From Promethearchaeota archaeon (GTDB lineage Archaea; Asgardarchaeota; Lokiarchaeia; Sigyniarchaeales; SOKP01): a stretch of 12,943 nt of DNA. Within the stretch, counting starts at the first letter, position 1; each line of letters starts with the position of its first letter. The DNA lies in NCBI GenBank assembly GCA_029838195.1, contig JALGVJ010000062.1, positions 1-12,943 on the forward strand. The letters are read 5' to 3'. Position numbers and translations under genes: made by a program. The notes under the pieces are model-generated. The model was given only the letters and a program-made list of their open reading frames with translations. It was not told the DNA's origin and searched no databases. Of the stretch, positions 1,626 through 11,914 are shown in pieces.

Positions 1626-2280
1626 TTTGGTTAAATACCTCTATAATGCTTTTCCAAAATAAAAGTTTTGTACGCAATTCTTCCCGATTAATGAAGGGAG
1701 ATAAAATATAGGCTCCAGGCCCTTGAGGAAGGACATTTTTTAGGTTTGTTCTATTCAACAAGTAATACAAGAGCAATATTAGCCCTTTTTCTATTGTAGC
1801 CCTGACGAGTTCTTTACGGTCCATCTCGTTCAAATAATCAAGATAATGATTTTTGAGGAGATATTGAATTACCGTTTTATGATTACTTAAAAATCTGGAA
1901 ATGATCTCCCTTTTAAACGCCTCCTCTGCCTTAGGATCTCCGGCATCTGCTAATTCCTTCAATAGAGGAAAGGCAAGCGTCCGGTGTAATAAGCGGGTGT
2001 CATAATCGTGTTCCGCCCAGACTTGGAGATTGGAACAATGGCCCCAAAATTCAGTTTCCGGAGGGATATTAAACTTGCTTCTGTTTCCCTCCATGGAACG
2101 ATCTAATCGTTCAGCAGCCTCATCAATGGATTGGAGCTCATCAAATGTGCTGACTTTCTTAACCGGGATGTCTAATAAAAGGAACTTACATTGTCTAAAA
2201 TTTTTTCCAGCAATGTAGATGTTAGTCTTGTTATTTATTAATTTAAGCGTTAAATATTCATTAACCTTAAATTCTTTCAT
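589..2280 (-). CDS. Protein with Lokiarchaeia-type conserved N-terminal domain plus alpha-helical tandem repeats; truncated by a frameshift (possible pseudogene or split gene)
   Basis: 563-aa ORF. The N-terminus EFKVNEYLTLKL...FRQCKFLLL...SIDEAAE...EFWGHCSNLQVWAEHDYDTRLLH...LAFPLLKELADAGDPKA resembles the N-terminal domain I recall from expanded Loki LRR-domain proteins. Four repeats follow, then an out-of-frame tail RLQLCSF*. Confidence 0.85.
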   Translation of the reverse strand: MKEFKVNEYLTLKLINNKTNIYIAGKNFRQCKFLLLDIPVKKVSTFDELQSIDEAAERLDRSMEGNRSKFNIPPETEFWGHCSNLQVWAEHDYDTRLLHRTLAFPLLKELADAGDPKAEEAFKREIISRFLSNHKTVIQYLLKNHYLDYLNEMDRKELVRATIEKGLILLLYYLLNRTNLKNVLPQGPGAYILSPFINREELRTKLLFWKSIIEVFNQRNFELIEFILKNEFCEVMPAEMRGAMFIDANPELKKNMLEDFETYKKNYEYDSKIKQDVDILRKLIKWGDQYAESFLQECLLTPFKTGNLDAIMFILKNEFYEVLPVERRVEMFIEANLKLKKKILNDLENSGGDYYIRRDIGILRQLISWGDKSAQSLLHISILTPFKAGNLTAINFILKNEIYEVLPAERRGEMFIDANPNLKKNILEDFKTHKNYYYIEDKIKRDIDILRQLISWGDESVKSFLQECILTPFKERNLATIYFILKNEFYEVLPAERRGTMFIDANPELKKNMLENFETYENSRDASKIKWDIDILRKLIDLGDESARSFLQECILRLQLCSF

Positions 2281-2356
2281 GATTTAATTGTCTTTTTAAT
2301 TCAAATCCGTTAATTATTCTTTGACAGTAAATATTTAAATTTATTGGTATTTAAAT

Positions 2357-3079
2357 TTATTTATCGAGATTTTTTCTTAAATGCGTTTTAGTTTCAATGA
2401 AATTAATTTTTTCAAGAAAGGGGGTTCTTTTAGATTTCAATAGTCGGGGATTCACGCCTCCTAAACAACCGGCTTTCTTCGAAAGGACCGGTGTATCATA
2501 AATCCTAAAAAGCGAAGCTAACAGGATGAATTCATTACTAATAGCTGGCTCCTCCTCATTGTAAAAATCACAAGTTATGAAAACGTCCGGCTTTTCAATT
2601 ATGTGGAGCAAGGCACTAAGAATTGCCCTTCGACGGGCTAAAAGATCTGTATTATCATACACGATCATGTAGGATTCGTATTCCGGTAATTTCGCAAGAC
2701 GAGTTTGATCAATAACATCTAAATACATTTTATTTCTCATTCTATAAAACTTAAACACGAGTTGTTTGCTATTTTTTTCTTGACCCTCGCTCAATTTAGA
2801 GAAAAACTCCTCATAATACCTGTAAGCACTCACGAATTTCCTAAAAAGCAACGGATGAGCATCTTTCATCTTACTAAAGAAAATCCTATAAAGAGAGATG
2901 TCTCGAACGTCCGTACAAAATTTGTTTATCTTTCCCTTTTCCGAATGATGAAACAAAAATGTAGCGATTATTTTACCAAAATACTCGGGATTTTCAATTA
3001 TTTCCAACAATTTATCGCGTTCTATTCTCACGATTATTAACTCTTCTTTACCTTCACTCGCTCCTTCACTAAATTTCAA
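2357..3079 (-). CDS. Hypothetical protein; frame may really begin at ATG 3208, with an internal TGA at 3110-3112
   Basis: 240-aa ORF with TTG start and protein-like composition, no motif recognised. The same frame upstream reads MIEQFNKELIDPNRYNAYTEESEKTGDIVHAI*DAYFGRSNLILKFSEG. Confidence 0.7.
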   Translation of the reverse strand: MKFSEGASEGKEELIIVRIERDKLLEIIENPEYFGKIIATFLFHHSEKGKINKFCTDVRDISLYRIFFSKMKDAHPLLFRKFVSAYRYYEEFFSKLSEGQEKNSKQLVFKFYRMRNKMYLDVIDQTRLAKLPEYESYMIVYDNTDLLARRRAILSALLHIIEKPDVFITCDFYNEEEPAISNEFILLASLFRIYDTPVLSKKAGCLGGVNPRLLKSKRTPFLEKINFIETKTHLRKNLDK

Positions 3080-3298
3080 TATAAGATTTGAGCGGCCAAA
3101 ATACGCATCTCAAATAGCATGCACAATATCTCCCGTTTTTTCACTCTCTTCAGTATAAGCATTATATCTATTGGGATCAATCAATTCTTTATTGAATTGC
3201 TCGATCATGTTTTCGCTTATTTCAAGCAACTAATAAAAAATAAATAAAATCAAATCCTATTTCCATATCAATCATCATCGGTTTTTATTGGGTAATTT

Positions 3299-3306
3299 TT
3301 TATAAT
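3299..3306 (+). promoter_or_regulatory. Putative archaeal TATA box for the dehydratase-like/activase operon
   Basis: TTTATAAT about 45 nt upstream of ATG 3350 in the divergent intergenic region. The AT-rich background lowers specificity. Confidence 0.4.
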
Positions 3307-3349
3307 ACAACGTGTTAATAAATAAAAAAAGATACGCACGCTAGTTCAA

Positions 3350-4540
3350 ATGAAAATCAGTTTTCCAAATATGGGTCCAAATTGGGTCGCGTTTAAATCA
3401 TTATTCACTGCTCTTGACCCAAATATCGAAGTCATCTTGCCTGACCCTACGAATCGAGAGGCCATTAAAATTGGTGTCAAGCACAGTCCGGAATTCGTAT
3501 GTTTTCCTTTTAAAGCGACTTTGGGGGATTTTGTTTCTGCTATAAAAAAGGGTGCGGATACTTTAGTAATGGCAATAGACTGTGGCCCTTGCCGGTTTGG
3601 GTTTTATCACGCCGTTCAAGAACGTCTCTTGCATGACATGGGCTATAAACACGTGCGGGTTATTCCTTTAGATCAAGCGGACTTGCTGGAATTCCATTGG
3701 GTAAAAACCCTTTATGAGGTCTCACCGCCGAAAAATAAACTCGCATTGTATTCCGGCATGGTAAGAGCCGTCATCGTCTTCTTGAAAAAAGCAAAACTAT
3801 TAAGCGACATCCAGACTGCTGAAGGTATTTTCCGAGCTTACGAGCGAAATCAAGGAGATACAACGGAAACGGTAAAAAATTTATTGATTAAATTAGATGA
3901 GGCAAATACACTAAAAGAGTTACGAAATTTTAAGAAAGTAATCAAGGAAGAATTCAATAAAATTGATGTCGACAAGACTAGAAATCCTTTAAAGGTGGCA
4001 ATCGCCGGAGAAATTCACATTAGCTTGGAAACTTTTGTTAACCTAGATATTAGACGAAAATTGGGAGAACTAGGTGTTGAAATTCACCAGAATTTGTGCC
4101 TCTGGGATTGGGTCGCCCATAAATTTCACTTGAATTTTCATCGAAAATGGTTGGAACACTTGGCAAAACCGTATGTTCCCATGGACATTGGTGGCGAATG
4201 TTATTGGGTAATCGGCGAGTACATTGACCGGGCAAGAAGTGGCTTTGATGGATTCGTTCACGTATATCCATTTACCTGCATGCCGGAAGTCACGGCTCGC
4301 ACTATCATTACGAATCGGTTAAAAGGAATTTATGATCTTCCCGTTATATTCTTTTCTTTTGATGAGCATTCCGGAATGGAAGGTTTTAGAACAAGATTAG
4401 AAGCTTTTGTGGATTTAATGACCACCCGAAGAGCACATTTAAAAAATAAGGAGAAAGAGGGAAAAGAAAGCTCAACTCCTGAATTTGATATTGGAAATCA
4501 TTTCTATAAAGAATGCGTGCAATTAATTAATGCCAAATGA
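3350..4540 (+). CDS. 2-hydroxyacyl-CoA dehydratase-like Fe-S protein ('CoA protein activase'/COG3581-like; PlsR-type reduction-dehydration domain class)
   Basis: Motifs MKISFPNMG, SPEFVCFPFK, GADT, DCGPCRFGFY, KVAIAGEI and GFDGFVHVYPFTCMPEV...FSFDEHSGMEGFRTRLEAFVD match the family pattern, with dispersed Cys ligands. Overlaps the downstream activase gene by 11 nt. Confidence 0.85.
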   Translation: MKISFPNMGPNWVAFKSLFTALDPNIEVILPDPTNREAIKIGVKHSPEFVCFPFKATLGDFVSAIKKGADTLVMAIDCGPCRFGFYHAVQERLLHDMGYKHVRVIPLDQADLLEFHWVKTLYEVSPPKNKLALYSGMVRAVIVFLKKAKLLSDIQTAEGIFRAYERNQGDTTETVKNLLIKLDEANTLKELRNFKKVIKEEFNKIDVDKTRNPLKVAIAGEIHISLETFVNLDIRRKLGELGVEIHQNLCLWDWVAHKFHLNFHRKWLEHLAKPYVPMDIGGECYWVIGEYIDRARSGFDGFVHVYPFTCMPEVTARTIITNRLKGIYDLPVIFFSFDEHSGMEGFRTRLEAFVDLMTTRRAHLKNKEKEGKESSTPEFDIGNHFYKECVQLINAK

Positions 4541-5579
4541 AGAGGAAACAAGCATGGTTGAAATTACGGAAGAGAATGTAGAGGTAAAAGAAACTAAAAA
4601 AGAAGCTTTCCTCGGAATTGATGTGGGAAGCGTGAGCGTGAAATTTGTACTGATGGATATGGAGGGCAACGTGTTGACCAGTGTTTTCTTACGAAATAAA
4701 GGCTCACCAATTGAGTCCGTAAAAGAAGGAATGGAACAACTGCGACAAAAAATCGAATCGGAGAAAATTTTACAACAATATGAGATAAAAGCTTGTGGAA
4801 CCACCGGCTCTGCTCGTTATTTAACAAAAGCCGTAGTAGGTGGTGATCTAGCTAAAACTGAGATCATAGCTCACGCAGTTGCCACGCAAAGCGAATATCC
4901 TGACGTTAGAACGATTCTTGAAATTGGTGGGCAAGATTCCAAAATCATCATCTTGCGAGATGGTATCATCGTGGATTTCGCCATGAATTCAGTATGCGCT
5001 GCTGGCACGGGTTCCTTTCTTGACCATCAAGCCTCCAGATTGGGTATCCCCATCGAAAAATTTGGAGATTATGCACTTAAATCGAAAAATCCCGTATCTA
5101 TTGCAGGCAGATGTACTGTATTTGCTGAATCAGATATGATACACAAACAGAATGCGGGTTATTCAAAGGAGGACATTATTGCGGGACTCTGCGACTCGCT
5201 TGTAAGAAATTACTTGAATAACCTGGCAAAAGGCAAGGAGTTGGAAGAACCCATTGTTTTCCAAGGAGGGGTTTCGTTTAATAAGGGAATCGTGAAGGCA
5301 TTTGAGAAGCAATTGGGCGTGAAAGTATTGGTCCCGAAGCATAATGTCTTGATGGGGGCTTTAGGAATGGCAATTTTATCACGGGATTATTATTTAGAAA
5401 ATGGCATGAAGACAAATTTTAGGGGGTTAAACGTGGGAGAATTAAATTTTGTAACATCAGCGTTCTATTGTGGAGATTGCCCGAATAATTGCGAAATAGT
5501 TCAAGTGCGGTTATCTGAGGAGGATAATAAGGTCATAGCGCGCTGGGGTTCTCGTTGTGGAAAATGGGAGGTGTTTTAG
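4530..5579 (+). CDS. Acyl-CoA dehydratase activase (BadF/BadG/BcrA/BcrD ASKHA ATPase, [4Fe-4S] 'archerase')
   Basis: GIDVGSVS (phosphate-1), GTTGSAR, EIIAHA, EIGGQDSK (phosphate-2), NSVCAAGTGSFLD, GRCTVFAESD and FQGGVSFN, plus a C-terminal CGDCPNNC...RCGKW Cys cluster. Confidence 0.95.
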   Translation: MPNEEETSMVEITEENVEVKETKKEAFLGIDVGSVSVKFVLMDMEGNVLTSVFLRNKGSPIESVKEGMEQLRQKIESEKILQQYEIKACGTTGSARYLTKAVVGGDLAKTEIIAHAVATQSEYPDVRTILEIGGQDSKIIILRDGIIVDFAMNSVCAAGTGSFLDHQASRLGIPIEKFGDYALKSKNPVSIAGRCTVFAESDMIHKQNAGYSKEDIIAGLCDSLVRNYLNNLAKGKELEEPIVFQGGVSFNKGIVKAFEKQLGVKVLVPKHNVLMGALGMAILSRDYYLENGMKTNFRGLNVGELNFVTSAFYCGDCPNNCEIVQVRLSEEDNKVIARWGSRCGKWEVF

Positions 5580-5601
5580 CATGGGAGGTGTTATAGCATG
5601 G
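5564..5601 (+). repeat. 17-bp tandem duplication containing a Shine-Dalgarno GGAGGTG
   Basis: atgggaggtgttttagc (5564-5580) followed by atgggaggtgttatagc (5581-5597) and atgg; one mismatch between copies. Confidence 0.9.
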
Positions 5602-5804
5602 TAGAAAGAATTAAAGAGTTTTTAGACCAGATAGAAGATTTAGGAAAGGAAGTAATGGAAACCCTCCAGCATCGGGCGAAATTAAGGACAATATTTGATA
5701 TATTCACGGAGAAAGTAATTCCAGCTTTCGTGTCAGAGAAGGATTTAAAGGAGTATTATGAGAAGCGCATGGAAGAGTTGAATGATTTCATTGATCGATT
5801 GTAG
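5598..5804 (+). CDS. Small acidic, helical hypothetical protein (68 aa), probably co-transcribed with the activase
   Basis: Strong SD (GGAGGTG) 7 nt before the ATG, 18 nt after the activase stop; E/K/L-rich amphipathic pattern. Confidence 0.8.
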   Translation: MVERIKEFLDQIEDLGKEVMETLQHRAKLRTIFDIFTEKVIPAFVSEKDLKEYYEKRMEELNDFIDRL

Positions 5805-6147
5805 AAAGAAAAGATCATTAATAGAAAATCTTTTTATTGAAGGTTCGTAATTTATATTTTACACGTGAGTAGTTTTTGAATTTTTAAAACAAACCTAAAT
5901 CCGCAAGTGTAATTCGGGTGGCATGGAATAATCATCTCAAGGATAAAGAAGATAACTGATTTAAGTAATATTTATCATAATATTAAATATTAAGACGGAT
6001 CATATTAGTTTTCGATTTAGAATCTTTATAAAAGATGCAATAATTAAAGTAATGGATAATTTAACCATGTTTTTCAAGAGTGGTAAGTAGACCGAAATTT
6101 TTCAAGTAATTAAATAAATAAAAATAAGAAAAACAAGTACGAAAGAC

Positions 6148-6852
6148 GTGATTCCAATGGTAGAAACTTCAGAAGTTTCGAAAAATGAGAATAAAATAAA
6201 CACAAAGGAGCTATTAGGCGATGTATTTTATGGAGCTGTGAAAGGAATTGGGGGATTGGCACTGAAACTTTTCACGAATTTAGAAATAGAGGGAAAGGAA
6301 AACATACCGTTAAGGGGCAAGGCAATCTTAACCACGGTGAGTAAAAATGTTATTCGAGATTTATTAATTATTAGCCAGGTTTCGGGGCGAAAAATTCATT
6401 TCATGTTAAATCCAAAGTTAATGCGTCATCAGATTGCGGGTCCCGTGTTGAAATCGCTTGGCATGATTCGAAGTACCGAGAGCAAGGACGATACGGAGCC
6501 AATTGATAATGTATTTAGAATCTTGAATGAAGAAGGGGATTTAGTGGCAATGACTCCGGAAGCAAAGTTGGATCGTGAGACTAAAATCAAATCCATGGCT
6601 GCCATAATTAAATTTGCCGTGGCAGCGGATGCACCCATCATTCCCATTGCCGTGGTACGGAAGAAAACGAAATTATTTAACATGGTGAATTCAAATGGAT
6701 TTAAGGTTAAAGTAGGGAATCCCTTGCCCCTGGATAAAAAACTAAATCGAGATAAGTATCGAAGTCAGAGATATGAAATTGCCGAAGATATCTTGAATAT
6801 AATCGAATCTCTTGAAGAAGAAGAGGAATTGGAAGAAGAAAATAATAAATAA
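6148..6852 (+). CDS. Lysophospholipid acyltransferase (PlsC/LPLAT)-fold protein with degenerate catalytic motifs
   Basis: EIEGKENIPLRGKAIL, RKIHFM, GPVLKSLGMI, VAMTPEA (FPEG equivalent), AVAADAPIIPIAV and VKVGNPL follow the PlsC motif order. The HxxxxD motif reads TTVSKNVIRD with no His. The start may be ATG 6157. Confidence 0.8.
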   Translation: MIPMVETSEVSKNENKINTKELLGDVFYGAVKGIGGLALKLFTNLEIEGKENIPLRGKAILTTVSKNVIRDLLIISQVSGRKIHFMLNPKLMRHQIAGPVLKSLGMIRSTESKDDTEPIDNVFRILNEEGDLVAMTPEAKLDRETKIKSMAAIIKFAVAADAPIIPIAVVRKKTKLFNMVNSNGFKVKVGNPLPLDKKLNRDKYRSQRYEIAEDILNIIESLEEEEELEEENNK

Positions 6853-6874
6853 TGTATTTAAATTAAAAAATTGA

Positions 6875-7165
6875 TTGTTGAGTGATATTCTCATGGAGGG
6901 AAAGAACCATTTAAATAATGAAAATAATACCCCAACTAATATAGAAACGATTGAACAAGGAAAATTTATTAAAGAACCTTTAAATAATTCGAACGAAGTC
7001 AAAAAATTATTTACAGAATTAGATGTGGACGAACCGATTGGCGAACTTTTTTATAATTCGGTAAAAATTATTTTTGATACGGGATTTCATTTAGTGAAAC
7101 GGCTAAATTTTGATTTCATCGCAGAGTCTATTGAAAAAGCGGAAGAAGATCAAAAAAGCCGGTAA
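6875..7165 (+). CDS. Hypothetical protein (~90-96 aa)
   Basis: ORF 22 nt downstream of the acyltransferase-like gene on the same strand; in-frame ATG at 6893; acidic composition; no motif recognised. Confidence 0.65.
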   Translation: MLSDILMEGKNHLNNENNTPTNIETIEQGKFIKEPLNNSNEVKKLFTELDVDEPIGELFYNSVKIIFDTGFHLVKRLNFDFIAESIEKAEEDQKSR

Positions 7166-8160: not shown

Positions 8161-8225
8161 TCTTAAAAATTTGTTTGATATAATTAGAATAAATTAAATA
8201 TATGATTAAACATGGAAAAATAATA

Positions 8226-8240
8226 CATATAAATTTTCAC
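8226..8240 (-). promoter_or_regulatory. Putative BRE-TATA promoter of the 7TM gene
   Basis: Minus strand reads GTGAAAA-TTTATATG (purine-rich BRE directly before a TTTATA box), about 66 nt upstream of ATG 8160. Confidence 0.45.
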
Positions 8241-8519
8241 ATTTTAAAAAAAAAAAATTTTAAAGAGTGTTGGAAATGAAAAAAATACATGATTTGAGAA
8301 AAAGTGAAAATGGTACTTAAAACATGTTAATTAATTCTCTTATTTTAATGGTAAATTTCGATCAACTCATTCAAAAACCGTCTGAAATTGATAAAGGAAG
8401 TTTTTAAATTCCATTATTAACCGTCTAAAGCGAAAAATAGTCTATATTCTCGAGTGAGAGAAAAATTGAAGTTTGAGATTAATATCTCCCAGAAAATGAC
8501 AATTTATTTTCTATTGTTG

Positions 8520-8672
8520 TCAAATTTTAAGTAAATCTTCTACTCTCCTCCGAATGGCGTCTATGATGAATTCAGAATGAGAGCGGTATCCTAATTCCTT
8601 CTTTTCCTCAATGATCTTTAGAACGGTTTCCACTAAATTTTCTGGTATCCGAACTGTTCTATAATTATTCAT
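8520..8672 (-). CDS. Ribbon-helix-helix (CopG/MetJ/Arc-type) DNA-binding protein, 50 aa
   Basis: Not in the ORF track. Manual translation: MNNYRTVRIPENLVETVLKIIEEKKELGYRSHSEFIIDAIRRRVEDLLKI*. Alternating beta-ribbon RTVRIP, helix A, a G-Y-x-S-x-S-E-F-I turn and helix B (DAIRRRVE) fit the RHH pattern. Confidence 0.88.
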   Translation of the reverse strand: MNNYRTVRIPENLVETVLKIIEEKKELGYRSHSEFIIDAIRRRVEDLLKI

Positions 8673-9345
8673 ATTTTCCAAATTTTGAAAGAAGTCTCAA
8701 TAAAGGATGAGATTATTAAAAATTGCATTTTTAAGAACTAATTACAATATCCCGTTATTCATAAAAATATATGACAAAATTAATAGTTTTTTATTTTAAT
8801 TTGTAAGAGTTTATTTTAATGGCAATCCTCAATTGTACTCCGAATTAATGAATTTTTAGGCACGATTCTTTATTTTAAAGCAAATCTAATATCATGTATA
8901 TCGATTTTTGTTCATATCATTTCTTTCCATGGAAAAAATTGGAAGAATTAAATAAGATGAAAAAATAGTTGCATTAAACACGTGTTCCAATCGAGTTAAA
9001 ATATCTTCAAACTCAGCCAATAATCCCCTAAAACGATAAAAAGTAAAAAATCAAGGTAATTTTCTTGATAGGATAAAATTAGCACTAAAAGAGTAATTTA
9101 AAAAATAGTTATAAATTATTAGAGAAATAATCTAATTTTTTCATTATAATACTTATCCAATCTCATGATTAGAAGCATGAAAACAACACTTTTAGTAATT
9201 TTTATCTTTAAGATTAGGATAAGAAAATATAATTTATAAGGAACGATAAAATATTATACATATTATTGTTGTATATTTAAATCAAACATGACATGAATGC
9301 AAGGACAAGGTTGCCGAATAGTTTTTAAAAAGAAAAGGGATAAAG

Positions 9346-10920
9346 ATGATAAATTTCTCTGCAAATGAGGTAATATCTCAAGATTTCAAGAAACTCTTGA
9401 AAAAAATACCCTCGCCAGCGTATTTATGGAAAAAAACCAAAAATAATGATTTTATTCTAATAGAATATAATAAAAAAGCAGAAGATATTATAAGAAGAAG
9501 AATTCGAACTTGGATAAATAAAGGTGCGGATCAACTTTTAAAAGAAAAGCCAGAAATGAGAGATGCTATGTTAGCTTGCTTTGAACAGAAAAAAGATTTT
9601 GTAAAAAAAGTAGAATTTTCTCTAAGATTTTTTCGATTCAAAAAATATTTTTTAGTAAATTTTCGATTCATGCCTCCTGATATGATATTAGTTTATATAG
9701 AGGATCTCGTAGAGCAAAAAAAAATAATTAAAAACCTCCTTAAAGCGAACAAAAAACTAAAATATATTAATGCTGAATTGGAGAAAATTTTAGATTTCAT
9801 TCCCGTACGAGTTTTTTACAAGGATAATAATAATCGAATTATTCGGGTGAATCGGCGATATAGCGAAGATTTAAACATGAAAAAAGAAGATTTAGAGGGA
9901 AAGAGCTGTTTTGAATTATATCCTAAAGAAATTGCTCTTAAATATTGGCATGATGACTTGGAAATCATGAATACCGGATGCGCAAAATTAAATTATGAAG
10001 AGCCGTGGATTTCGCCAAAGGGGAAACGTTGGGTATTAACCAGTAAAATTCCTTTTCTATACAGTAAAAATAATATAATTGGTGTTATCGGATTTGCGGT
10101 AGATATCACGGAGCAAAAATTTTTAGAAAACGAATTAAAAAAATCTCGAGATCAACTGAAGCAAGTCAATGAAAAACTACTTCAGGTAAAAGAAGCTGAA
10201 ACAAAATATCGAAAGGCATTTGAGCACCTTTCCTTTTACAAGGATTTGGTGTTTCATGATATTAATAACATTTTTAATAACATGCATTTATCTGCCCGCT
10301 TGCATGAAGAAAAAATTAAATCAACCATAATAACTGAGGAGATTAAAAAATTCCCTCAATCTATCATCGAACAAGTTATTCGAGGGATGAAATTAATTTC
10401 AAATGTACGAGCAATTTTAAACATGAAAATTCAAGAAATACCTTTACAAGAGGTTGATCTTATCCTATTGTTATCTAATGCGTTGAACTTCATTGAAGCA
10501 TTTTTTCAACATCGTACAATAAATATCACTACGCAATATTCCAAGAAAAAATACATTGTATTAGCAAACGAACTGCTACAAGATGTTTTCGAAAATTTAT
10601 TAATTAATGCCATTCATCATAATCAAAATGAAATTGTCCAAATTGAAATTGTCATTACCGAAATTACTGAAGAAAGTAAAAAGCACGTGAAAATGGAGTT
10701 TAAAGATAATGGAATGGGCATATCGGAAGAACTAAAGAAAAACCTTTTCGTAATGACACCCTCGCAAGATATTAGAGAAAGAAAAGCTAAGGGGTTTGGT
10801 CTAAAACTTGTAAAAAAATTAATGGATATTTACAATGGAAAAATTATCGTGGAAGATCGCATTAAAGGCAAGCCTTCAGAAGGGACTAATTTTATCCTCT
10901 TCATACCTGCTTTGAGTTGA
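9346..10920 (+). CDS. Cytoplasmic PAS-domain sensor histidine kinase
   Basis: N-terminal PAS-like domain, coiled coil, then PAS/PAC (LDFIPVRVFYKD...VNRRY...GKSCFELYP...GFAVDITEQK). H-box FHDINN, N-box FENLLINAIHH, G1 DNGMGI, G2 KGFGLKLV, terminal GTNFILFIP. Confidence 0.95.
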   Translation: MINFSANEVISQDFKKLLKKIPSPAYLWKKTKNNDFILIEYNKKAEDIIRRRIRTWINKGADQLLKEKPEMRDAMLACFEQKKDFVKKVEFSLRFFRFKKYFLVNFRFMPPDMILVYIEDLVEQKKIIKNLLKANKKLKYINAELEKILDFIPVRVFYKDNNNRIIRVNRRYSEDLNMKKEDLEGKSCFELYPKEIALKYWHDDLEIMNTGCAKLNYEEPWISPKGKRWVLTSKIPFLYSKNNIIGVIGFAVDITEQKFLENELKKSRDQLKQVNEKLLQVKEAETKYRKAFEHLSFYKDLVFHDINNIFNNMHLSARLHEEKIKSTIITEEIKKFPQSIIEQVIRGMKLISNVRAILNMKIQEIPLQEVDLILLLSNALNFIEAFFQHRTINITTQYSKKKYIVLANELLQDVFENLLINAIHHNQNEIVQIEIVITEITEESKKHVKMEFKDNGMGISEELKKNLFVMTPSQDIRERKAKGFGLKLVKKLMDIYNGKIIVEDRIKGKPSEGTNFILFIPALS

Positions 10921-10975: not shown

Positions 10976-11914
10976 TTATCTATTTTTTTGATTATAATTA
11001 ATCATGAGCACGGCAATTAAGACCACTAATCCACCAATAATATTTCCCATTTTCACGATTTCTTCTATATTTAAAAAATAAGAAAATAATAAAGTAATAA
11101 ATGGTTCCACGTAAAGGAATGAGGCCACGTTTGAAGAGCTTAACGTTCTCTGGGAATTTTGCCAAATAAAATACCCTAAAACATAACATGCGGGTCCTAA
11201 ATATAAAGCACTAATTATCACCACCCAATTTAACCCTTGCTTAAAAAAGAAGAACAATTCTCCATTTAAATAAATGTATAAAAATAATTCTATAGCCCCA
11301 AGATAAGCAATATATTTTAACATCATGTTAGTTCCATGATTTTGCATCAATTTTTTTGTAAGCATGGTATAAATTGCCCAAAATAGAGGAGTGAGAAGTG
11401 CTAAAAAGATTCCTAAAAAGTTGGACGAGTTAGGATTTAATGTGTTTATATCCCCTCCCGTGACTAAAAAAAAGCCGCCTATTGAAGCCAAGAGAAACCC
11501 CAAGGATTTTAATTTATTTAACTTTTCTTTAAAAAAAATTAAAGAAAAAATCGCTATAAAAACGGGAGAAAGCAAGCAGACGAAGAGGGCCGGCAAGGAT
11601 GGGCCAATGAGTTGGATTGCATTATATTGAGAAAGAAAAAATAAAACAACGCCAAATTGAGTGGCTAAAAAGAGTAAAATCCATTCTTTACCATTAAATT
11701 TTTCATTTTGAAGGGATTGTAGTTCACTTGAATTATTATTTTTTCTTAAAAAAAATGAATAAATATCAACCAGCAAGTACAAAATGGATGAGACGAGAAA
11801 TCTATAGAAAGCAATTACCATTGGAGGAATATAATTAATCGCAATGTTCACTACTATGAAAGAAAATGCCCACATGTTAATCATGAGAATTAATAATAAA
11901 TATATGGAAAGCAT
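10976..11914 (-). CDS. EamA/DMT superfamily transporter
   Basis: 312 aa, about 10 TM segments in two EamA repeats; motifs WAFSF, PPMVIAFYRF, SPVFIAIFSLIFFKEKL, WAIYTML and ASFLYVEPFIT. Confidence 0.93.
   Translation of the reverse strand: MLSIYLLLILMINMWAFSFIVVNIAINYIPPMVIAFYRFLVSSILYLLVDIYSFFLRKNNNSSELQSLQNEKFNGKEWILLFLATQFGVVLFFLSQYNAIQLIGPSLPALFVCLLSPVFIAIFSLIFFKEKLNKLKSLGFLLASIGGFFLVTGGDINTLNPNSSNFLGIFLALLTPLFWAIYTMLTKKLMQNHGTNMMLKYIAYLGAIELFLYIYLNGELFFFFKQGLNWVVIISALYLGPACYVLGYFIWQNSQRTLSSSNVASFLYVEPFITLLFSYFLNIEEIVKMGNIIGGLVVLIAVLMINYNQKNR

Follow-up and report, generated by a model that had tools for sequence, protein, structure and literature searches.

Organization of the locus

The window, i.e. 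the whole stretch of 12,943 nt that was analyzed, contains five co-oriented open reading frames (ORFs) at positions 3350–7165, here called g1–g5. The initial annotation had described five co-oriented genes with a 343-bp gap between the first three and the last two. All ORFs were present on the plus strand, and the gap was confirmed by reading the sequence. The features are as follows:

3350–4540, plus strand: g1, 396 aa, predicted Red2 module, equivalent to PlsR, of a split Fe-S reductase of the PlsA/Ger class
4530–5579, plus strand: g2, 349 aa, predicted ATP-dependent activator, BcrAD_BadFG/HgdC type, Act2-like
5564–5601, plus strand: 17-bp tandem repeat, 2.2 copies, 95% matches (Tandem Repeats Finder)
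5598–5804, plus strand: g3, 68 aa, conserved, helical and acidic, of no known family
5805–6147, no strand: g3–g4 spacer, 343 bp, AT-rich, with a T-run near the g3 stop
6148–6852, plus strand: g4, 234 aa, PlsC/LPLAT fold, catalytic His of HX4D absent
6875–7165, plus strand: g5, 96 aa, TTG start, small fast-evolving ORF 3' of g4

The g1 and g2 genes overlap by 11 nt. The 17-bp repeat covers the stop codon of g2 and the start codon of g3, and a GGAGGTG ribosome-binding-like motif is doubled in it. The T-run lies ~30 nt downstream of the g3 stop, within the spacer, which matched no family in an Rfam search. The length of the spacer is unusual, the g3–g4 gap being 20–106 bp in ten relatives, and it is possible that in this genome it comprises a terminator and a separate promoter for g4–g5. 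The window holds only half of the system, namely the downstream part of a proposed cluster of lokiarchaeial lipid genes.

The reductase subunit and its activator

The g1 product matched DUF2229 (PF09989) with 36 bits over an N-terminal stretch only (Pfam). No full-length match to HGD-D (PF06050) above the gathering cut-off (28.4 bits) was obtained; the observed match scored 23.1 bits and covered only residues 297–355 in the C-terminal tail. When the g1 family profile was compared with the ~1400-aa proteins of Act1-Act2-Red1-Red2 architecture, it aligned to Red2 along the whole length of g1, over 345 columns (hhalign, E 2.3e-58), and more weakly to the Red1 segment (E 5.3e-27). Residues C51, P53, C81, R82, G220, and C310 were invariant in an alignment of 118 family members, and C51, C81, and C310 aligned to C1085, C1120, and C1376 of the fused-type A1. 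The best PDB folds for the AF2 model of g1 (pLDDT 94.6) were HadC (3o3m_B), DCCP (7yyl/6eno), MbdN, and BzdO, with TM ~0.5 and 12–14% identity. The label "dehydratase-like", given to g1 earlier, holds at the superfamily level only. The g1 product is predicted to be the Red2 subunit ([4Fe-4S], three-Cys) of an unfused PlsA/PlsR/Ger-class enzyme, an assignment that rests on pairwise and profile comparisons, identity to Red2 of the fused proteins being 20–25%.

The g2 product matched PF01869 (160 bits) and TIGR00241 (195 bits), and its PDB sequence matches were MbdQ (5.7e-39), HadI (1.2e-36), and HgdC (1.7e-33). It aligned to Act2 and the tail of the fused proteins with 34–45% identity. The bridging-cluster cysteines C156 and C195 are located in the CAAGTG and GRCTVF motifs, which are invariant in A1, and the C-terminal four-Cys tail (C314, C317, C321, and C343) corresponds to the invariant C623, C626, C630, and C649 of A1. 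Residues 303–634 of a fused Listeria protein were 34% identical to g2 (E 3e-57), with the Cys tail aligned as well. The gene is therefore predicted to encode the ATP-hydrolysing activator of the split reductase, in which the activation module is a single gene, as opposed to two fused domains in the PlsA/Ger class.

The partner locus

The initial annotation had proposed a split archaeal PlsA/Ger-type locus with a PlsC-fold neighbour. Its architecture and synteny stood, but the system is not complete in the window: Red1 and the active acyltransferase are encoded on another contig (C67) and are not among the five genes. Red1 (C67:860–1921) matched the full DUF2229 (PF09989) with 162 bits and has conserved cysteines C61, C99, and C284. 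Its neighbours are a double PlsC-type acyltransferase, which keeps both HX4D motifs (NHRSHLD and NHNSEWD), and a HAD hydrolase (phosphatase); an MFS_2/GPH transporter gene sits between the double acyltransferase and Red1. The only PF01553 domains in this genome are those of the double acyltransferase and g4, i.e. in the two loci of the system. The genome also holds YhhN (lysoplasmalogenase family) genes, seven genuine HGD-D genes (130–297 bits), and only two activases, g2 and one beside a canonical HGD-D pair.

Comparison with known enzymes

The ~1400-aa fused proteins could be mapped module by module: g2 onto Act2 and the tail, the C67 Red1 onto Red1, and g1 onto Red2. Against the 1475-aa Listeria monocytogenes protein WP_014600632.1, the three were co-linear (g2, E 3e-57; Red1, E 2e-23; g1, E 2e-7 with 21% identity). 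Both pls orthologues and plasmalogens have been reported in Listeria (PMC9702350). Features of the PlsA/PlsR/Ger class found here include an activation domain with bridging cysteines, Red1, a three-Cys Red2, and the Cys-rich Act2 tail.

The PlsA/PlsR system of Clostridium perfringens, encoded by a single gene in Enterococcus and Listeria, has four modules, two activation units plus Red1 and Red2 (PMC12838417 Fig. 8). It resembles the present system in the Act2 Cys tail, in the three-Cys motif of each Red module, and in PlsR being a separate Red2 protein like g1. It differs in that the present system, from an archaeal host, consists of three unfused proteins, has a single activase gene in place of two fused domains, and follows the gene order Red1, Red2, Act. 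The present genes also lie amid those for acyltransferases and are accompanied by an additional 68-aa protein. Identity is low (Red2 ~21%, Red1 ~26%, Act ~34%).

The published domain string of Ger (Thermotoga maritima Tmari_0479; Desulfatibacillum alkenivorans), BBDHDDH (PMC13159169), fits Act, Act, Red1 (D+H), and Red2 (small D, H). Ger homologues have been reported in Lokiarchaeota (PMC13159169), and the hosts are strictly anaerobic in both cases. Ger is one ~1400-aa polypeptide, whereas the split type, to which the present system belongs, is a separate, divergent paralogous subfamily with ~21–25% identity to fused forms that can co-occur with them.

Dehydratases and reductases of the HadBC/HadI, HgdAB/HgdC, benzoyl-CoA reductase, and DCCP/DCCP-R types share the superfamily fold with g1 and the activator, as well as the use of ATP to drive electrons into Fe-S clusters that are held by Cys ligands. 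The 2-hydroxyacyl-CoA dehydratases, benzoyl-CoA reductases, and DCCP differ from g1 by the low identity and TM score given above, by its HGD-D score below the cut-off, and by the partner, which is here a DUF2229 Red1.

The His-less PlsC-fold protein and the small proteins

The g4 product matched PF01553 (40.6 bits), and Foldseek matches of its model were LpxM (5kn7), PlsC (5kym_A, TM 0.52), GPAT, and PatA. Its start is more likely ATG 6157, giving 231 aa, because homologues are 226–237 aa long. The motif TTVSKNVIRD aligned to GNHRSHL-D of the neighbouring acyltransferase, the His being replaced by Ser65. The catalytic His at the HX4D site was absent in 33/33 g4 homologues; Ser, Ala, or Thr takes its place, and one residue is inserted before the Asp. 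Residues D71, R108, and E138 were invariant among the 33. The likeness to PlsC/LPLAT proteins (e.g. T. maritima PlsC, PDB 5KYM) comprises the fold, the motif-II Arg, the motif-III Glu, and a motif-IV-like PIIPIA, whereas the HX4D His is lost and FPEGTR reads TPEAK. Since the His is replaced and FPEGTR is degenerate, g4 is probably not an acyltransferase.

The g3 protein was 58–74% identical across 10 relatives (mean column identity 77% in an 11-sequence alignment), and searches of Pfam and NCBIfam gave no matches to it. In relatives with the cluster it was always positioned between g2 and g4, and it was not found in a genome that lacks the reductase block (G083, see below); g3 travels with that block. 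Conservation of g5 was limited to a core of ~25 residues in six genomes (IG[DE]LFY.S.K..FD.G., with F59, F67, D68, and G70 invariant in the alignment), and tblastn gave weak matches in four relatives. No similarity was found when g5 was compared with g4. The g5 gene may alternatively start at ATG 6893.

Synteny and distribution

Linkage of the PlsC-like gene in related genomes had been set as a test beforehand and was found: the gene is syntenic with the reductase pair in most relatives. Red1 adjoins g1 in relatives, and two genomes (G040 and G104) carry a contiguous cluster of HAD, double acyltransferase, Red1, Red2, Act, g3, and g4, which g5 sometimes closes in relatives. The cluster is rearranged and still linked in three others (G019, G030, and G113). 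In a second family (f2), the order is acyltransferase, acyltransferase, Red1, Red2, Act, and in G031 of family f16 an acyltransferase adjoins Red1. Despite rearrangements, the acyltransferase–reductase linkage was thus present in at least five genera of family f1, in f2, and in G031. The 100% complete genome G083 retains HAD, double acyltransferase, g4, and g5, and no orthologues of Red1, g1, or g2 were found in it, so the association of g4 and g5 with the acyltransferase persists there in the absence of the reductase genes.

Among the other Asgard families, f5, f2, and f24 have fused ~1400-aa forms, which were not found in the organism's own family; ~706-aa Red1-Red2 fusions also exist. Split and fused forms co-occur in families f2 and f5 and in a Clostridia MAG, so the two forms may differ in function. 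In family f5, split systems occur, and the nine genomes searched contained no PF01553 domains. No acyltransferase neighbour was seen in the bacterial split operons checked, and an acyltransferase was located within 3 kb in 2/80 fused bacterial loci.

Proposed function

The best explanation of the two loci, to which we give about an even chance, is a split PlsA/PlsR/Ger-class ester-to-ether lipid cluster with a double acyltransferase. The double acyltransferase would make acyl-ester glycerolipids. An Act dimer would spend ATP to deliver a low-potential electron to the clusters of Red1/Red2. There the ester carbonyl at sn-1 would be reduced, perhaps with dehydration, yielding an alk-1-enyl or alkyl ether in the manner of PlsA/PlsR and Ger. 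Ester-to-ether chemistry of the split reductase is what we infer by analogy with these enzymes. The g3 protein may serve as a reductase accessory, and g4 (with g5) would bind or present lipid rather than transfer acyl groups. Several observations count against the lipid reading: the low identity of g1 to Red2 of the fused proteins, the co-occurrence of split and fused forms, the split systems of f5 where PF01553 is absent, the scarcity of acyltransferase neighbours at the bacterial loci, and G083, which keeps the acyltransferase, g4, and g5 and in which no reductase orthologues were found. In addition, the T-run-containing spacer parts g3 from g4 here, and lipid analysis of a cultured Lokiarchaeon reported archaeal lipids only, although ester lipids may escape the method used (PMC13400652).

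Alternatively, the system could be a split ATP-driven reductase or dehydratase with Fe-S clusters, from the same superfamily, whose substrate is not a glycerolipid ester (a different carbonyl, for example, or a small molecule as in DCCP), which we regard as possible, though rather unlikely. The acyltransferase neighbours would then reflect a different shared pathway or a lineage-specific accident kept by descent, and related genomes are non-independent samples. The wide occurrence of the split subfamily without acyltransferase neighbours, its co-occurrence with fused forms, its presence in f5 where PF01553 is absent, and the g1 fold, equally far (TM ~0.5) from HadC, DCCP, and benzoyl-CoA reductase subunits, are consistent with such a substrate. 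The linkage across f1 genera, f2, and G031, the confinement of all PF01553 domains of the genome to the system, and the co-linearity of the four modules with PlsA/Ger-type proteins, Act2 Cys tail included, argue against such a substrate.

Lipid salvage or degradation is improbable. Scavenged bacterial lysolipids would be taken up or re-acylated and their ester bonds reductively catabolised, with no role in membrane building. Aas (acyl-ACP-phospholipid acyltransferase), which re-acylates lysolipids, is among the best NCBIfam matches of both g4 and the double acyltransferase, and the archaeal-lipids-only result for the cultured relative would fit. The transporter beside Red1 and the YhhN genes would fit too, but the transporter is missing from the cluster in relatives; the distribution of YhhN over the phylum does not follow that of the system (f1 6/15, f12 16/17), and an ATP-consuming reductase is costly compared with a hydrolase for ester cleavage.

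An ordinary 2-hydroxyacyl-CoA dehydratase with its activator in amino-acid fermentation, the PlsC-like gene being adjacent by chance, shares superfamily-level fold likeness between g1 and HadBC and an activator resembling HadI and HgdC, but is very improbable, as it is contradicted by the Red2-type profile match and sub-threshold HGD-D score (23 bits) of g1, the Act2-type g2 with its Cys tail, the canonical HGD-D operons with their own activase elsewhere in the genome, and the synteny of the PlsC-like gene in most relatives. Grouping of the pair with amino-acid-fermentation dehydratases was an outcome that the initial annotation had named as refuting its proposal, and the comparisons went the other way.

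Significance

An open question is how eukaryotes, with their fatty-acid lipids, arose from an archaeal host whose lipids were isoprenoid ethers. In Asgard archaea, homologues of PlsC and PlsY have been reported (PMC6737245; PMC13400652) separately from fused Ger homologues (PMC13159169), and a literature search found no paper describing PlsC, a split reductase, and a pseudo-PlsC as one conserved cluster. We tentatively propose, at somewhat less than even confidence, that a dedicated archaeal cassette allows Lokiarchaeia to produce alk(en)yl-acyl glycerolipids of non-isoprenoid kind (plasmalogen/plasmanyl type). The cassette would combine a double acyltransferase of PlsC type, a split ester reductase of three subunits with a 68-aa accessory, and a His-less PlsC-fold lipid-presenting protein. 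Five to eight genes are a set small enough for anaerobic expression in E. coli, and the natural three-protein version of PlsA/Ger lends itself to mechanistic and structural work. Lipidomics and transcriptomics of cultured Lokiarchaeia can also be used to track the cluster, so that speculation about a mixed membrane would give way to direct experiment. The cluster would represent a concrete, though unproven, set of genes by which close relatives of eukaryotes may make ether lipids that are not isoprenoid.

Gene content of the window

The window is one entire contig (C18, 12,943 bp). The source genome comprised 4.5 Mb in 94 contigs, with 96.6% completeness and 7.9% contamination, and the closest protein matches were named Promethearchaeota or Lokiarchaeia. 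The five open reading frames (ORFs) at 3350-7165 were present on the + strand as the initial annotation described:

3350-4540, +, g1, partial DUF2229 match with a sub-threshold HGD-D tail
4530-5579, +, g2, strong BcrAD_BadFG/TIGR00241 activase, overlapping g1 by 11 nt
5598-5804, +, g3, without family match
6148-6852, +, g4, PF01553
6875-7165, +, g5, without family match

The 343-bp gap between g3 and g4 was confirmed; it is AT-rich and, as read from the sequence, carries a T-run shortly 3' of the g3 stop. The same spacer measured 20-106 bp in ten relatives, and its length here is therefore a local peculiarity of this genome. The g2 stop and the g3 start both fall within a 17-bp tandem duplication at 5564-5601 (ATGGGAGGTGTT[T/A]TAGC), and a GGAGGTG motif resembling a ribosome-binding site is repeated within it. 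The Rfam search of the window matched zero families. This included the stretch at 8197-9345 (~1.1 kb, 25-26% GC), in which the sole ORF of at least 50 aa was one of 53 aa (8520-8681).

Module identity of g1 and g2

Relatives of g1 were sought among 1.8 billion representative proteins, and 1696 were recovered, mostly stand-alone and ~360 aa long. Some were ~700-770 aa; g1 matched their C-terminal half, and their N-terminal half was a full DUF2229 with an HGD-D tail (Pfam). Proteins of ~1400 aa were found by a search for longer relatives, and BLAST against them gave a clean four-module map.

Modules of the ~1400-aa proteins and their counterparts in the source genome (BLAST)
Act1: g2 residues 27-300, 28-45% identity
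Act2: g2 residues ~10-347, including the Cys-rich tail, 33-45% identity
Red1: DUF2229 protein on contig C67, 23-32% identity
Red2: g1, mostly near full length, 20-25% identity

The same architecture has been described for Ger (domain string BBDHDDH; PMC13159169) and for PlsA/PlsR (Act1, Act2, Red1, Red2; PMC12838417). The genome-contig scan gave metagenome-assembled genomes (MAGs) only, and the named anchor was a 1475-aa Listeria monocytogenes protein from the plasmid collection (WP_014600632.1). It aligned part for part with g2 (Act2 and tail 34%, E 3e-57; Act1 29%), the C67 Red1 (residues 667-996, 26%, E 2e-23), and g1 (residues 1032-1419, 21%, E 2e-7). Listeria has been reported to have pls orthologues active under anaerobiosis (PMC9702350).

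In profile-profile comparison, the g1 family scored far better against Red2 segments (E 2.3e-58, 345 columns) than against Red1 segments (5.3e-27), and g1 was therefore assigned to Red2 rather than Red1. Judged from these alignments, the window very probably encodes two subunits of an unfused enzyme of the PlsA/PlsR/Ger class, Red2 (g1) and the activator (g2), with the Red1 subunit encoded on C67. This split type forms a subfamily of its own. PDB sequence searches with g1 and with g4 returned zero matches, as did an Atlas feature search with g3.

The cofactor sites were conserved across the modules. Residues C51, C81, and C310 were invariant in the g1 family (118-sequence alignment), and the Red2 module of the fused proteins has its three invariant Cys at the aligned positions. 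Three invariant Cys (C61, C99, C284) were also found in Red1. In g2, both bridging-cluster Cys are kept, as are four Cys of the tail; all are invariant in the fused family. The predicted g1 model (pLDDT 94.6) matched HadC, DCCP, and benzoyl-CoA reductase subunits only at TM ~0.5 and 12-14% identity, which places g1 on a distinct branch of the superfamily.

An ordinary 2-hydroxyacyl-CoA dehydratase had been named as the alternative for this gene pair. The HGD-D tail of g1 is sub-threshold, and seven genuine HGD-D genes (130-297 bits) lie elsewhere in the genome, on contigs C1, C8, and C34. There were only two activases, g2 and a second adjoining the HGD-D pair on C1; DUF2229 was found only in g1 and in C67:860-1921. 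With genuine dehydratase genes and a separate activase elsewhere, the alternative is very unlikely.

The second half of the cluster

The gene cluster is larger than the window, which holds one half of it. The following were found near Red1 on C67:

MFS_2 transporter
569-aa protein, two PF01553 domains, TIGR00530 157 bits
HAD-IA hydrolase

Each PF01553 domain of the 569-aa protein (hereafter the double acyltransferase) showed a complete HX4D motif (NHRSHLD, NHNSEWD) together with a PEGT block, and in the whole genome PF01553 was found only in this protein and g4. The transporter (MFS_2/GPH, C67 locus 2105-3523; MelB-type symporters belong to the same broad family) lies between the double acyltransferase and Red1 in this genome only.

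In two relatives (G040, G104), the HAD, double acyltransferase, Red1, g1, g2, g3, and g4 genes were contiguous on one strand, and in three others (G019, G030, G113) this gene set was interrupted by insertions of 1.4-4 kb. Two genomes from a second family of the same taxonomic order (G089, G094) had acyltransferase, acyltransferase, Red1, g1, g2 in that sequence, and an acyltransferase adjoined Red1 in a genome of a further family (G031). The g3 protein was 58-74% identical among relatives and always positioned between g2 and g4. The suggestion that the PlsC-like gene was adjacent by chance is contradicted by this synteny.

No overlap was found when the C67 ends were compared for joining with those of the window contig. 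The left end of the window sits inside a 261-bp tandem-repeat gene, and this repeat probably broke the assembly. Two - strand ORFs at 2-2280 (2-622, partial, 207 aa; 589-2280, 563 aa) are built of ~261-bp (87-aa) tandem repeats, with 3.9 copies at 78% match in 612-1605. A homologue (40% identity, 162 aa) was present in the 4-kb insertion splitting g1 from g2 in G113 (L005 11534-11992), so the gene recurs at cluster breakpoints. On the other side, ~4-6 kb beyond g4, an EamA-family transporter (10976-11914, -) was also found in G113 and G083 (51-53% identity) as part of a loose conserved neighbourhood; in the source genome a PAS histidine kinase (9346-10920, +) lies between it and the cluster.

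Distribution of split and fused forms

Fused ~1400-aa forms were found in Asgard families f5, f2, and f24, co-occurring with split sets in f2 and f5, and none were found in the family of the source genome in the survey across Asgard families. It is probably these forms that an earlier study recorded as "Ger homologues in Lokiarchaeota" (PMC13159169). In a Clostridia MAG, a fused gene coexisted with a Red1-Red2-Act operon that had no acyltransferase nearby. Split locus P0270 likewise had no acyltransferase among its neighbours, and an acyltransferase lay within 3 kb in only 2/80 fused bacterial loci. In f5, split systems were present and PF01553 was found in 0/9 genomes searched; in f14, f22, and f25, PF01553 occurred without DUF2229.

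Other arrangements were observed in some relatives. Directly upstream of g1, G109 (L004 9521-12632) and G113 (L005 14012-17138) carry a further split set of paralogues, arranged Red1' (42%), Act' (52%), Red2' (40-42%); the source genome is without it. A third arrangement of modules consists of ~980-aa open frames whose matched stretch is BcrAD_BadFG plus DUF2229 (Act-Red1 fusion; L006 404-2383 in G113:C38, and G008:C90:126016), in some relatives at a distance of a few kb from Red1.

Two genes of the YhhN (lysoplasmalogenase) family were present in the source genome (C22:27562-28149, C19:26483-27022). As a marker of vinyl-ether lipids, YhhN was dropped as support, being common across the phylum with a distribution that does not track the reductase.

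The acyltransferase-like protein g4

Comparison of the predicted g4 model with known structures gave an LPLAT fold. Alignment with the active domain next door placed Ser65 of g4 at the position of the catalytic His, with one residue inserted before the Asp and TPEAK in place of FPEGTR. A His at the catalytic site was found in 0/33 family members, while R108, E138, and D71 were invariant and mean column identity was 75%. The loss across the family suggests a conserved pseudo-acyltransferase or a protein of altered chemistry. Conservation of g5 was limited to a short core; the idea that it is a piece of a duplicated PlsC N-terminal region was rejected (BLASTP E 18).

Orthologues of Red1, g1, and g2 were sought in G083, a relative with a 100% complete genome, and none were found; the HAD, double acyltransferase, g4, and g5 genes were still adjacent. 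An unrelated 204-aa ORF with a PICSSCK motif (L018 8066-8680) lies there between g4 and the double acyltransferase, at the site where g3 and the reductase genes would be expected. From this gene content, g3 goes with the reductase genes, and g4 and g5 stay with the acyltransferase. Complex prediction for g1 (1-370), the C67 Red1, and g3 with g4 (39-226) as the partner scored 0.00, which gives no answer and is evidence neither way.

Function

The lipid-remodelling role initially proposed was partly supported, by its PlsA/PlsR/Ger-class modules and by the synteny of the PlsC-like gene. Its casting of g4 as the reductase partner was not supported; the gene content of G083 links g4 with the acyltransferase rather than the reductase. 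PlsC/PlsY in Lokiarchaeota (PMC6737245; PMC13400652) and Ger homologues in Asgard archaea (PMC13159169) have been published; no description of the joint cluster, the split three-protein archaeal form, g3, or the His-less PlsC was found in the literature search. PMC13400652 cites the sole published lipid study of a cultured Lokiarchaeon as having found archaeal lipids only, with a method caveat. That result, the separate subfamily of the split type, its co-occurrence with fused forms, and the split loci and families with no acyltransferase limit how far a function can be read from the homology. By analogy with the PlsA/PlsR and Ger enzymes, it is plausible that vinyl or alkyl ethers would be formed by the enzyme from acyl esters that the neighbouring double acyltransferase would supply.
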